The notes under the pieces: model-generated
What the model saw: only the letters and a program-made list of their open reading frames with translations
The model's database searches: none
What the model was told of the DNA's origin: nothing
Position numbers and translations under genes: made by a program
NCBI GenBank assembly: GCA_964016885.1
Contig: OZ024742.1
Coordinates: 179,180,001-179,244,000 of the forward strand
Source of the DNA: Eledone cirrhosa
Lineage: Eukaryota
Direction: 5' to 3'
Length of the DNA stretch: 64,000 nucleotides
In this document: positions 1,769 to 60,644 of the stretch, piece after piece
How positions within the stretch are numbered: the stretch's first letter is position 1
Layout: each line of letters begins with the position of its first letter

Positions 1769-2005
1769 AGTATTAGTTATACTATTTATGGTTATGTAAA
1801 TACAAAACCTTATGCAGTTATAAGTATTTTTTATATATTTTTTATATACACCCTAAATAGTGGTAGGCAGTAATGTATTACTACCTTATTACCAGTAAGT
1901 TAAGTAGCTCAATGTAAATAGATTGCTCCGAAGAATCCAAACTTCGGTTTGGAGGAAACAGCTGTAAGCACAATAATGTTTTGAACAGTTCTTTGATTCT
2001 TATAT
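1769..2005 (+). mobile_element. PLE terminus relic, family B (inverted tail joined to hammerhead segment)
   Basis: 1769-1917 resembles 13143-13268 and the reverse complement of 36548-36680; 1920-2005 resembles 14460-14540; (TA)n on both sides. Confidence 0.7.
1924..1970 (+). ncRNA. Minimal type-I hammerhead motif, CCGAAGA variant core (family B)
   Basis: tgct CCGAAGA a tccaaac-ttcg-gtttgga g GAAA cagctg TA agca; palindromic helix III ACAGCTGT. Confidence 0.7.
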
Positions 2006-2485
2006 TTCATATATTTCATATATATATATATATATATTTAGGTTTGTTGGTTCACCACTGGATAGAACTGGTCATTCCGTATGGTCAACCTTGATATACT
2101 ACTAGGGAGAGCACTCGACGTAATGCAACTCACACGTCTTCGTTTGTATTGTTGGTGGTGCGAGTACGGAGTTAATTATTATAAAATAACACCAGGCTGG
2201 ACTAGTGTAATTCCTTAAAGGTTTATTATACTATGAAAATTTGAATGACAGGGTTCAGTATGAATCGGGTGACATCATCAGGTATTCGAAATTTAACAAA
2301 GGGATATAATAAACACAATCAAAGGGGTTGAAAAGCAGAGAGAGACGCCCAAGACGAGAAGGCGGCCAATAATTAACAGTTGCTAGACGGGTAGCCGCCT
2401 TCCAGTGAAGACTCTACTTAGTCTTGTCTTGTCGTTCTGATCAGTGGCCGTAGTTTATAGTGTATATTATCACAACCACCCCGTC

Positions 2486-3391
2486 ATATATATATATATA
2501 TATATATATATATATATATATATATATATATATATATATATATATATATATATATATATATATATATATATATATATATATTTATATATATATATATATA
2601 TATATATATATATATATATAGGTATATATATATATATGTATATATATAGGTATATATATAAATATAAATATGTATATATATATATATATATATATATATA
2701 TATATATATATATATATATATATATATATATATATAAATATGTATATAAATATATATATATATAAATATGTATATAAATATGTATATATATATGTATGTA
2801 TATATGTATACATATATGTATGTATGTTATGTATATATATATATATGTATATATATATATACATATATATATATATATACGTATATATATATATATATAT
2901 ATATATATATAGGTATATATATATATATATATATATATATATATATATATATATATATATACGTATATATATATATATATATATATATATATATATATAT
3001 ATATATATATATATATATATATATATAGGTATATATATATATATATATAGGTATATATATATATATATATATTTATATATATAGGTATATATATATATAT
3101 ATAAATATGTATATATATATATATATATATATATATATATATATATATATATATATATATATATATATATATAGGTTTATATATATATATATATATATAT
3201 ATATATATATATATATATATATATATATATATATATATATATGTATATATATAGGTATATATATATATATATATATATATATATAAATATAAATATGTAT
3301 ATATATATATAGGTATATATATATATATATATAAATAAATATGTATATATATATATATGTATAAATATAGGTATATATATATATATATATA
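2486..3391. repeat. (TA)n array with GGTA and AAATATG variants
   Basis: Directly visible. Confidence 0.98.
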
Positions 3392-3405
3392 TTTCGTTTC
3401 TGAAT

Positions 3406-5415
3406 TTGTTTAGCAAGATTCTTTATCTGAAATCGTGTGTTGAAACCGATATTGTTATACTTTGGGAGGGTCATGTTGCCAATAAGAAACACACGCACCA
3501 GTTGCTTTCACTTCAATTTGCGTTGTATGGGCTTCGTAAAGACCATAAAACGGGCTGGGACCCTGTCGCGGGACCACCAACACGGCCAGTCTGTGGGGCT
3601 AACATTGCTAGTAACTACAGACTGTCCTACTTCCTCTCTCTGATCATACGCCCCATCATTGAGATGTCCCCAGATGTGTGTGACAGCACGGAGGACCTCC
3701 TCAGCAGAATCGGCGCGGGTAACCGATCTGGGGACCTAACAAACTGCATAATAGGCAGTATGGATGTTGTGTCCCTGTATCCATCTATTGACGTGGATTT
3801 TGCTGTAGAGAAATGCGTCGAAATGATCAGCGAGAGCAAGGTTGAGTTCCGTGGGATTGATACCAGTGAGCTGGGACTTCTACTTAAGCTTACCCATAGT
3901 AATAGTTACCTAGACACTTATGACCTTAGCAACCTGTGCCCTACAAGACCAGCAAGAGGCAGACCACCTACCATTACCTCAATGGCCAAGAAAACCCACA
4001 CAGATAGATGGAACGGGTGGACCAGAGCCATACGGACACCCGAAAACCACGATGAACTGAAGAAAATGATTGCACATGCGGTAGGGGCCAGCATAAAACT
4101 AACCCTTAAGGAACATATGTTCAAATTTAATGGTAAAACATATGCCCAAGAGGAAGGAGCAGCCATTGGTGTTAGCATTGCAGGCGACATAGCTAACTTA
4201 TTCATGGTATGGTGGGACAGTAGACTTAAACAAAAACTTAATGAACAATTAGAAGACAGCTTAACCCTGATAATGTACTCCCGCTACGTAGATGATATAA
4301 ACATCGTAGTTAAGACACCCCCACTAAAGAACAGTCAGGAACTAGAGAAAAACACAATGGAAAGCATCCAGCAAATAGCAAACTCCATCCACCAGAGCAT
4401 TAGAGTTACTATAGACTACCCAAGTAGACACCCCAACCATCGATTACCTGTACTAGACACAGAGCTCTGGTTAGATACTATTAACAACCAAAAACAAATC
4501 CTCCATTCCCATTATGCCAAACCCATGACTTCCAAACATCTGATCCACCGAAACTCGGCCATTTCGGACCATACCAAAATCAACATACTGATTGCGGATT
4601 TGGTACGGGTGATGAGAAATGTGTCCCGCATGTGCAACCCCGAAGAACTAGAGAGACACATACAACACTTCATCCACCGTATGCAGTTCTCTGGCTACAA
4701 TCAGAGAGATAGAATCAGAGTGTATAAAGGAGCCAGAACCAAATGGGAAAAAATGGTAAATAATGACATAAATGGGACCTGCCCCTTGTATAGGAGCAAA
4801 TTTTGGAATAGAATAGAAAGAACTAAGAACAAGGCCAATAGAATAAACTCATGGTATGATAGCAATAAATACCAGAGTGTAATGTTCATCAATACAACCC
4901 CTAGAGGCGAACTAGCCTACAAATTTAGAAGGGCCCTAAAGAAACATAATCTCAATATTAAGATAGTAGAAAGACCTGGTACCTCCGTAAAAACACTTAT
5001 TAGCAAGACATACCCGTTCCAAAGACCCTCATGTATAGATAAGAAATGTATAACCTGTAAAATAAGCCCCCATATTAACTGTAAAACTAGAAATGTAGTA
5101 TATAGCATAAGATGTACTGAAGGACAATGTAGAAACAAAAATGTAGTGTACATAGGTGAGACAGCTCGTAGTATAGGGGAACGAATAAATGAACACTGGC
5201 GAGACCTCCAAGATAGTAAAGAATCATCTGTGCTCTACCAACATGCTAAGATAGAACACAGGGGTAAATTAGAGAGCATAGAAATAAAAATAGAATCCAC
5301 ACACAAGAAAGACGCAATGTTTAGGCAAATTACAGAGGCAGTAAGCATAAAAGAATTAAAACCAAAATTAAATAGAAAATATGAGTGGAACAGCAACATC
5401 ACAACTTACAATTAA
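3406..5415 (+). CDS. PLE reverse transcriptase + Cys-rich linker + GIY-YIG endonuclease, N-terminally truncated (first ~38 codons derive from the inverted pLTR)
   Basis: RT motifs [59 protein letters not shown]; linker C..KKC..C...NC; endonuclease VVY..C...[16 protein letters not shown]...ITEA...LN. Start is TTG; first in-frame ATG is at about 3664. Confidence 0.93.
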
Positions 5416-5720
5416 GGACAAAATGAAAACACACACACACATAGAACAAACAACTTACAATTGAAAACACACACAAAATGAAAACACACACAAGACAAAA
5501 TGAAAACACACACACACATAGAACAAACAACCAACCAACAATAAATAAATAAATAAACAAACAAATAGAAAAATATAAATAGAAAAATAGAAAAATGAAC
5601 ACAAACACACACAGACACCCGGATGTGGCGCATGCACAAACTGAGCACGCAACCCACACACAAACAAAATGGCGTAGGATAGAAGAAAGGAAAGACACAG
5701 AAACGAAGAACGAAATCCCC

Positions 5721-5765
5721 AGTCACTGAAGAGGTCACAGAGTGTGTGACGAAAGAACTATGACT
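5721..5765 (+). ncRNA. Minimal type-I hammerhead ribozyme in the PLE-A pLTR (family A)
   Basis: agtca CTGAAGA g gtcaca-gagtg-tgtgac GAAA gaac TA tgact; stems I and II pair perfectly. Confidence 0.85.
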
Positions 5766-59283: not shown

Positions 59284-59444
59284 AGATTATAATAATATAT
59301 AATAATATATGTGTGTGTGTGCGCGCGCAAGAAGGAAATTGTACGTTATCAGGTCGCCGATGAGGTAGAAATGCTGTTGTCCGTGTTCGCCTTATGAAAT
59401 AGTGTTTTGTTTGTGAGTGTGCGTGTACATATATATATATATAT

Positions 59445-59628
59445 AACAAAGAAGGTGTGGTAAGATACCAGGTGGACCATAACGCACCAGAGTACTCAAT
59501 ACTTGGGGTAGTAGAGTAGGTAATATGAAAAGATTCAGGGCCCCGACGGCTGAGCCCCGGCCGTTTCGACAGCTAGATCCGTCGAAACGGCCGGAACTCA
59601 GTCGTTGGGGTTCTGAATCTTTTCATAT
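59445..59628. mobile_element. Fold-back relic of the 8901-10270 PLE family
   Basis: 59524-59571 is inverted against 59581-59628. Confidence 0.7.
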
Positions 59629-59892
59629 ATATATATATATATATATATATATATATATATATATATATATATATATATATATATAGAGAGAGAGAGAGAG
59701 AGAGAGAGAGAGTAATTGAGTGAGAAAACCCCAGTACTATTCAGATTATTGATTTATCGATGCTGAAAGTATGAACGGTAAAGTCAGCCTCGGTAAGATT
59801 TTAACACAGTGCAGAGAGCCAGAATGAATACTGTAGAGTACCACGTCATATCAACCCGTACGTATTTCTATCTGTAAACATACGTAGAGTGG

Positions 59893-60152
59893 GGGCACGT
59901 GACCTACTGGTAACGGTGTTGGACTTACGATCATAATGTCTTGGGTTCGATTGCTGGATTGCGTGTTATGATCTTGAGCAAAACACATCATTTCACGTTG
60001 TTCCAGTATACTCAGCTGAAGATGAGTACCAGCAATAGCCGGGGGTTTATTCCTGCGATGGACTGGCTTCTTGTCCAGATGGGAGTCTTGCTCTCAGTCG
60101 CTTCACGCCATGAAACCGGGATAAGCACCGGCCAAAAGAGCCTTCTGGCTTA
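59893..60152 (+). mobile_element. tRNA-derived CORE-like SINE (second family)
   Basis: GGTTCGATT B-box, then tcttgagcaaaacacatcatttcacgttg..cagtatactcagctg..atgagtacc; related minus-strand copies near 20890-21070, 40080-40200 and 49270-49390. Confidence 0.65.
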
Positions 60153-60608
60153 AGATAGATTTTAGACTAGACATACGTAGACATGTATGGATCCACAACT
60201 GCTGGCGGATTCGCAGGGGGTACCGTTGTGATATATGACATTTCTTGAAGGCTTTAAACCTGGTGGAGCCCTTTCCCTCTTCAGCTTTTGATACAGGCAA
60301 TTTCTTCCGCTGAAAGAGAGAGTGACTAAGACAGGAAGTGAGAAAGAGATATAGAGGAAGAATCAACCCTAGTATTGGGCTGGTACTTTATAACCGACCT
60401 TGAAAGGATGAAAGGCAAAATTGACCTCCACATGATTTGAACTCAGAGCATAGATATCCAGAGTAAATAGAGTAAACAGAGTAAACAGAGTAAAAAGCCA
60501 ACGTTTTTACGACTCAGCTAATGCGCCGCCACATACACACACACACAGAGACTTTTTTTTCCAATTCCAACCCACCTGCCCCCTCAATCTATCTTATTTC
60601 TCATTCTT

Positions 60609-60644
60609 TCTTCTGATGAAGGACTACCGTCCGAAACGTTAAGA
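60609..60644 (+). ncRNA. Canonical minimal hammerhead (family K)
   Basis: tctt CTGATGA a ggac-tacc-gtcc GAAA cg TT aaga; helix III ACGT can form only as a dimer. Confidence 0.8.

Follow-up and report, generated by a model that had tools for sequence, protein, structure and literature searches.

Hammerhead ribozyme motifs beside (TA)n arrays in Eledone cirrhosa: predicted ends of Penelope-like elements and retrozyme units

A stretch of 64,000 nucleotides (nt) from Eledone cirrhosa (assembly GCA_964016885.1, contig OZ024742.1, positions 179,180,001 to 179,244,000 of the forward strand; hereafter the window, numbered from its first letter) carries type-I hammerhead motifs of many sequence families, nearly all of them close to (TA)n runs. 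A homology census places 28 sites in 17 families, and together with family X and a copy of family E at 37720 the window holds at least 18 families (Table 1). These motifs are real. Considering the locus as a whole, the best explanation, to which we give a probability of roughly 80%, is that truncated ends of Penelope-like elements (PLEs) and retrozyme units have entered (TA)n by means of PLE enzymes. The population is a mixed one of a known kind of element, which the first-pass annotation of this DNA had lumped as one.

Motifs were searched with a strict type-I descriptor, a relaxed version and then a third, wider one that also admitted the U3-A8 core and a bulge; the core tested for membership was C3-G8 (or U3-A8), G5, A6, A9, G12, A13, A14, the A15.1-U16.1 pair and H17, with three helices and helix I open. 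No motif was returned in the window by the strict descriptor, 12 by the relaxed one (against 3 in 20 shuffles) and 21 by the wider one at score ≥9, where a shuffle gave about 0.8-0.9 and the reversed and complemented window none. The comparison with shuffled sequence proposed at the outset gave, under stringent filters, 18 motifs against 7 in 40 dinucleotide shuffles of 200-nt blocks (0.175 per shuffle). Rfam returned no match in the window at the gathering threshold, and at E ≤ 10 the best 150 of 665 rows contained no hammerhead model and were dominated by microRNA models on TA repeats. Strict motif searches do therefore miss these motifs, as had been anticipated. The accompanying idea that masking would also miss them fails, since they stand 4-210 nt outside the TA runs and simple-repeat masking alone would not remove them. 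Their proximity to such runs is clear: a (TA)6+ run stands within 200 nt of 21 of 22 sites and of 30% of random non-repeat positions. Matches containing simple repeats were left out of the stringent, cluster and covariation counts, and all motif counts are lower bounds because the descriptor limited helix III to 17 nt, so that family X escaped it.

All 22 coordinates of the first-pass annotation could be traced to type-I hammerhead motifs or to copies with damage, 15 of them recovered directly by the descriptor, and all 11 of its families recur genome-wide; six of its listed copies are damaged, and it had overlooked seven more families. The six belong to families that are intact elsewhere in the genome. 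Stem II is shortened in E at 29607, core G5 is altered along with a 4-nt deletion in E at 29897, and E at 37720, called by eye and missed by both the descriptor scan and the homology census, has G at the cleavage position; TA stands in place of the 5′ strand of stem I in F at 28305, and U16.1 and G12 are altered in H at 31950 and 55432, respectively. Family J at 47784 has an intact core with imperfect stems, and its motif is kept in 25 genome copies.

Table 1. Hammerhead motifs of the window and their predicted carrier elements, in window positions.
Feature	Position	Strand	Basis
Family B hammerhead, C at core position 4, palindromic helix III	1924..1970	+	descriptor; ORF link in L133/L134
Extra family (cluster 33) hammerhead, absent from the earlier list	2228..2285	-	homology to 2 descriptor matches, 91%
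Family A PLE: inverted tail, 5′-truncated RT + GIY-YIG ORF 3469-5415, 3′ UTR, hammerhead 5721-5765	3392..5920	+	
Family C fold-back insertion: hammerheads 7201-7321 (-) and 7930-8050 (+), 92-nt domain II	7156..8210	.	
Extra family X: Hydra-type endonuclease fragment 9080-9445; decayed U3-A8 hammerhead ~10073-10174, inverted copy ~8917-9010	8900..10260	+	
Family D retrozyme-like unit, U3-A8 hammerhead 11238-11330	10632..11401	+	descriptor
Extra family Q fold-back pair	12823..12921	.	cluster + census
Family B fold-back insertion: hammerheads 13340-13386 (-) and 14463-14509 (+)	13140..14552	.	
Extra family M hammerhead, 115-nt domain II	21432..21585	-	descriptor, cluster
Family A 3′ fragment: endonuclease remnant and hammerhead 27312-27356	26562..27512	+	
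Family F unit, hammerhead 28305-28380 without stem I 5′ strand	28305..28720	+	
Family G inverted tail and hammerhead 28839-28891	28770..28905	+	
Family E fold-back of putative 319-nt retrozyme unit; damaged U3-A8 hammerheads 29607-29650 (-) and 29897-29942 (+)	29441..30059	.	
Hydra-type endonuclease ORF fragment (30459-30878) joined to inverted family G tail	30250..31106	-	
Family H fold-back of putative ~425-nt retrozyme unit; hammerheads 31738-31780 (-) and 31950-31994 (+, damaged)	31473..32260	.	
Family A hammerhead, short fragment	32709..32753	+	descriptor
Family I Hydra-type PLE: ORF 34848-35954, 1.2-kb 3′ UTR, hammerhead 33577-33645	33451..35954	-	
Family A hammerhead abutting truncated end of family I element	35953..35997	+	descriptor
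Decayed family E-related hammerhead	37720..37764	-	by eye only
Extra family N hammerhead, decayed core	46943..47008	+	descriptor, census
Family D hammerhead, second subfamily: loop II differs, stems same	47229..47316	-	descriptor
Family J hammerhead with short inverted arm	47784..47846	+	
Extra family O hammerhead, branched 96-nt domain II	48288..48412	+	fold z -4.27
Extra family P hammerhead	48930..49016	+	descriptor, cluster
Decayed family H hammerhead	55432..55474	-	census
Family K minimal hammerhead	60609..60644	+	descriptor

Families A, B, C, G and I are predicted to be PLE ends linked to an open reading frame (ORF) with a GIY-YIG endonuclease, K weakly so. The earlier description of the motif carriers as PLE relics does not hold as worded, since D, E, H and probably F appear to be ORF-less tandem or circular units and A is young. 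In the window, the family A hammerhead follows an ORF with reverse transcriptase (RT) and GIY-YIG domains (RVT_1, E 1.7e-4; GIY-YIG, E 1.9e-4; both below Pfam cutoffs). Copies of this family are 99-100% identical, a hammerhead-ORF-hammerhead layout is present in three of five extended loci, and a full-length open frame exists outside the window: in L325, RT and, at the C-terminus, a GIY-YIG domain share a single ORF of 1,277 open codons, with a long insert of N/T/H-rich, low-complexity sequence preceding the RT, between hammerhead-bearing pseudo-long terminal repeats (pLTRs). The family A 'tail' corresponds to the 5′ untranslated region (UTR) and ORF start of the next unit. Full-length young elements lie at L325:4357-8629 (G000:C3 near 54.52 Mb) and likewise in L324 and L326. 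Family A shares with Neptune/Nematis PLEs the CxxxxCxxC linker, the CCHH-type endonuclease, tandem pLTRs and a minimal hammerhead, and differs from them by the 1,277-codon frame with its insert; it appears Neptune/Nematis-like by linker and endonuclease.

For family B, RT and endonuclease frames lie 1.47 kb upstream of the hammerhead in L133, an ORF link is also found in L134, and a homologue search gave eight proteins, five of them with PF26215; a Naiad identity was dropped because the B endonuclease is C-terminal. An endonuclease ORF lies 824-892 nt upstream of the family C hammerhead in 7 of 25 loci, and the ORF link of family I seen in the window is supported by partial alignments elsewhere. 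Family G is linked to a PLE ORF indirectly: its inverted arm meets a Hydra-type ORF both in the window and at 5 of 30 loci, and the 3′ UTR enters a microsatellite before the hammerhead. Translations of B, C and I read as CxCx5C linkers without CCHH, the Hydra features of G and X are seen via window fragments and their relatives in L190 and L397, and insertion in (TA)n was found for the Hydra-type families when tested. Endonuclease features and (TA)n insertion together suggest that B, C, G, I and X are Hydra-type PLEs. X is an abundant family of this type, with tail fragments in the window near 28150-28270, 38363-38520 and 59445-59624.

By their sequence organization, D, E and H are putative ORF-less, circularly permuted retrozymes of 320-620 nt, and F is probably another. 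Head-to-tail ORF-less units were found for H (~425 nt, range about 420-490), E (318-319 nt) and D (587 nt, in L059); in copies of all three the tail leads directly back into the unit's own upstream sequence, and there is no ORF. The sole retrozyme evidence for F is a circular junction in L206, where its 3′ end passes through (CA)n(TA)n into its own start. Segments longer than one unit make up 34 of 81 in H and 24 of 74 in E. ORF links considered for E in L084 and D in L043 were rejected, these ORFs being neighbouring inserts. Sequence resembling H also occurs in contigs from three sequencing runs of three organisms, sparsely in two, and is not taken as evidence on expression. One may argue that all families are 3′ relics of autonomous PLEs and that the tandem units are amplified pLTRs instead of independent retrozymes, given that retrozymes have been argued to derive from PLE pLTRs (bioRxiv 10.64898/2026.07.22.740005) and that D, E and H carry the PLE end signature described below; the ORF-less passage from tail to upstream sequence, the many H segments exceeding one unit and the assignment of the ORFs beside D and E to other inserts make this unlikely.

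In A, B, C, D, E and H, most 3′ ends lie at one of two fixed sites, and each site closes in a short TAT, TATA or TAAT match to the target. On the circular H unit 55 of 81 3′ ends lie in two 20-nt bins, on that of E 60 of 74 lie in two bins, and 5′ ends are scattered on both. Among fold-back pairs, both kinds of end are represented in B (9/9), E (4/4), C (7/10) and A (2/3); mapped loci were the best BLAST matches to window queries, and loci that duplicated the window or one another were dropped from the two-site and fold-back counts. In the four family C loci displayed, a (TA)8-33 run of variable length occupies one homologous UTR position, and some elements carry internal TA runs. The initial proposal that (TA)n is a niche common to many independent families is borne out here but is not new, having been published for the Hydra clade (PMC8557442).

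These ends allow us to speculate on how the truncated PLE ends and retrozyme units came to lie in (TA)n. Tandem copies would be transcribed and the hammerheads would release RNA of unit length, with dimers as the probable cleaving form where helix III is palindromic; the unit RNA would probably be circularised. The GIY-YIG enzyme would nick (TA)n, the nick priming reverse transcription downstream of the cut site, where both target strands could prime or join at the two fixed UA-ending sites; reverse transcription would then cross the cut junction, stop at random and often fold back. Retrozymes would borrow the PLE endonuclease and RT, with a template that is likely circular or multimeric RNA, and elements with TA runs would seed new targets. 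Since truncation spares only the 3′ end, hammerheads would accumulate next to TA runs throughout the genome. Both self-cleavage and RNA expression are predicted from DNA here. We hold only tentatively the bolder proposal that this genome is the densest animal reservoir of self-cleaving ribozymes described, that the two-site footprint is direct structural evidence of PLE enzymes copying circular ribozyme RNAs into (TA)n, and that carriers of TA runs seed their own targets and build the microsatellite load.

Several observations weigh against the combined PLE and retrozyme explanation. The rule of one end of each kind is weaker in D (2/4) and H (3/8), family C end calls include alignment bridging into TA, and end distributions are biased because loci were chosen by BLAST rank. 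Linear multimeric templates fit the data as well, and longer-than-unit copies are also expected from linear multimeric transcripts or unequal crossover. Pfam scores of the PLE ORFs fall short of gathering thresholds, and the full-length family A frame has no Pfam match at E ≤ 0.1. The link of G consists of the inverted-arm junctions in those 5 of 30 loci, with a downstream hammerhead in 3 of 30 by pattern and one more by eye; decayed PLE-like frames upstream of K were recognised by eye in 1 of 40 loci and have no Pfam match; and no ORF was found for J in ~60 loci, its upstream sequence passing into low-complexity DNA. Most monomer minimum-energy folds differ from the hammerhead fold, and monomer folding was uninformative for short families.

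The genomic background was sampled with sixty 10-kb tiles chosen at round coordinates across large contigs of the 3.0 Gb genome. They hold 65 stringent motifs, against 1-5 in five shuffles and none in 600 kb of reversed tiles, giving 108 per Mb (bootstrap 68-155), or 172 per Mb (120-228) by homology census, in which family Q is the commonest (11 of 103). Motif counts correlate with TA content (Spearman 0.60) and with TA array number (0.65), tiles with <2% TA having a mean of 0.125 motifs. Head-to-tail hammerhead arrays also occur in unselected tiles (L186:449-3403; L171:6633-7768; L164:6459-7060), with H-like units of 482-492 nt (7 copies) and units of 522-528 nt of another family.

Against this background the first-pass claim of a hotspot is not sustained. 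The window has 281 stringent motifs per Mb, ~2.6-fold the genome mean (bootstrap P 0.023 versus the tiles), and 0.38 compared with 0.21 motifs per TA array by homology census, as a special local concentration far above the rest of the genome would have it. Such a concentration is quite unlikely, however: density tracks TA content, which is 15% in the window and 4.8% in the tiles; tiles with at least 8% TA average 1.7 motifs per 10 kb against 2.8 in the window; single tiles elsewhere hold 5, 5, 6 and 8 motifs; and the family library of the census was seeded from the window, which the comparison therefore favours. Islands between TA runs are short in the window. It is a typical rich patch, ordinary for its genome, because sampling predicts several hundred thousand such motifs genome-wide, roughly 2-7 × 10^5 in at least 40 families by extrapolation from a 0.02% sample of the 3.0 Gb. 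The extrapolated load exceeds the counts in the literature consulted, in which the largest that we found is 126,247, in axolotl (PMC7229834), and PLE minimal hammerheads are counted in thousands (PMC4209133).

The motifs look like RNA structures under selection. When no constraint was set on positions 3 and 8, 58 matches in 664 kb comprised 50 C-G, 6 U-A and 2 other combinations (56/58 pairing), whereas 20 matches in five shuffles were spread over 13 combinations. A set of 418 sequences totalling 1.94 Mb, most of them loci retrieved with queries from the window, gave 548 matches in 67 clusters, 38 of them with at least two members; families J, K and X are additional to these. Palindromic helix III, reported initially for several motifs, is widespread, being fully self-complementary in 23 of 38 clusters. 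Core position 4 is C in nearly all clustered matches of family B and A in 20/20 of family Q, and the U3-A8 core is used by D, E and X, the last with a 19-nt helix III and a palindromic loop. Domain II measures 92-115 nt in C, O and M; the word 'minimal', previously applied to the hammerheads, holds for A and K only, several families having a helix III of 4-6 bp and a domain II of up to 115 nt.

It is very unlikely that these are hammerhead-shaped structures which barely cleave now and serve the PLE enzyme chiefly as signals for RNA folding or protein binding. Minimal hammerheads of metazoan PLEs did cleave weakly in vitro (PMC4209133), and U4C reduces activity in vitro (PMC3088659) while B is fixed for C4 and Q for A4; yet position 17 and the 3-8 pair obey catalytic rules, though the descriptor admitted no G17, and retrozyme units would need cutting to yield unit RNA, judging from PMC7229834. 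As for chance matches in AT-rich, palindrome-rich DNA, which the relaxed descriptor does produce at ~4.6 low-score matches per shuffle at score ≥6, they are refuted by the shuffle, reversed-tile and covariation controls and by the recurrence of the families, which have compensating stems and candidate copies in the hundreds.

Earlier publications already cover hammerheads of PLEs, their targeting of (TA)n and the U3-A8 core, and what is new here is the scale and the two-fixed-end ('tail') signature common to retrozymes and PLEs. Cervera & de la Pena 2014 (PMC4209133) reports hammerheads in PLEs, the U3-A8 core, pairs on opposite strands and genomes with many families, and also has the idea of a circular template; its minimal hammerheads number ~2,000+1,300 in S. 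mansoni and 9,000 in Xenopus, in contrast to our estimate, and many families here differ from them by a 4-6 bp helix III, a domain II of 50-115 nt that is sometimes branched, and fixed C4 or A4 cores. Core variants including U4C are treated in PMC3088659. Inverted copies, tails on one side, insertion targeted to (TA)n and a hammerhead-bearing Hydra family from octopus are all described by Craig et al. 2021 (PMC8557442). Hydra clade PLEs, including Hydra-1_Obim, resemble our Hydra-type families in the C-terminal GIY-YIG without CCHH, the CxCx5C linker, (TA)n insertion, the hammerhead near the 3′ end, the inverted 5′-truncated copy and the one-sided tail. There, however, a single octopus family of <3 kb has a short canonical hammerhead and tails are 30-40, whereas at least five putative Hydra-type families (B, C, G, I, X) occur in the window alone, with tails of ~55-170 nt and 3′ UTRs of 0.8-1.5 kb.

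Non-LTR (long terminal repeat) retrozymes and their likely PLE origin have been described (Cervera & de la Pena 2020, PMC7229834; Li et al. 2026 preprint) as ORF-less head-to-tail units of 300-600 nt with one type-I hammerhead, coexisting with PLEs and including many monomers, which fits D, E, H and probably F. Those of E. cirrhosa, known from DNA, differ in being mostly dispersed fold-back monomers in (TA)n with two-site ends of PLE type, in the U3-A8 core of D and E and in the microsatellite of F; the term 'tail' does not occur in the accessible text of the Li et al. preprint. The accessible text of PMC8557442 states PLE integration mode and the role of the hammerhead as open, and PLE mobilisation of retrozymes is a hypothesis in PMC7229834 with phylogenetic support in the Li et al. 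preprint. The E. cirrhosa genome has a young PLE whose full-length frame is open, junctions that could be mapped by the thousand and retrozymes sharing the PLE end signature, which makes the circular-template model testable by counting. Its natural hammerhead variants (U3-A8, C4, A4, long or branched domain II, helix III of 1-6 bp) also form a ready library for high-throughput cleavage assays; genome-wide load, variant diversity and the shared end signature raise the finding above routine. A recent octopus repeat annotation leaves ribozymes unmentioned in its main text (PMC13282606). Our literature search returned no cephalopod hammerhead census, which subscription papers, Lunse et al. 2017 or supplements may contain. 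The variant list of Lunse et al. 2017 (PMC5785218) may overlap the families here.

Upstream of family J copies, B-like and X ORFs in L350 and L397 were rejected as belonging to neighbouring inserts, and in L239 there is what we take to be a Tc1-like transposase remnant. Elsewhere in the window, 24870-25545 presumably holds the 3′ end of a probable ORF of a CR1-type long interspersed element inside a TA array, and the minus strand at 52608-53500 resembles what we assume to be a non-LTR element with a restriction-like endonuclease; neither has a Pfam match. A repeat of ~200 nt resembling a short interspersed element has many copies, some tandem, which are not TA-associated (770-1030, 18340-18520, 20490-20680, 56130-56540, 58770-59280), and at 42380-43180 a long (ACA/CCA)n trinucleotide tract gives T/N/C/V-rich open frames. 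Finally, 25660-25920 and 46225-46515 represent a repeated family of TA-flanked islands with a short inverted end, in which no hammerhead was detected and which is probably a tail-only fragment of another family.

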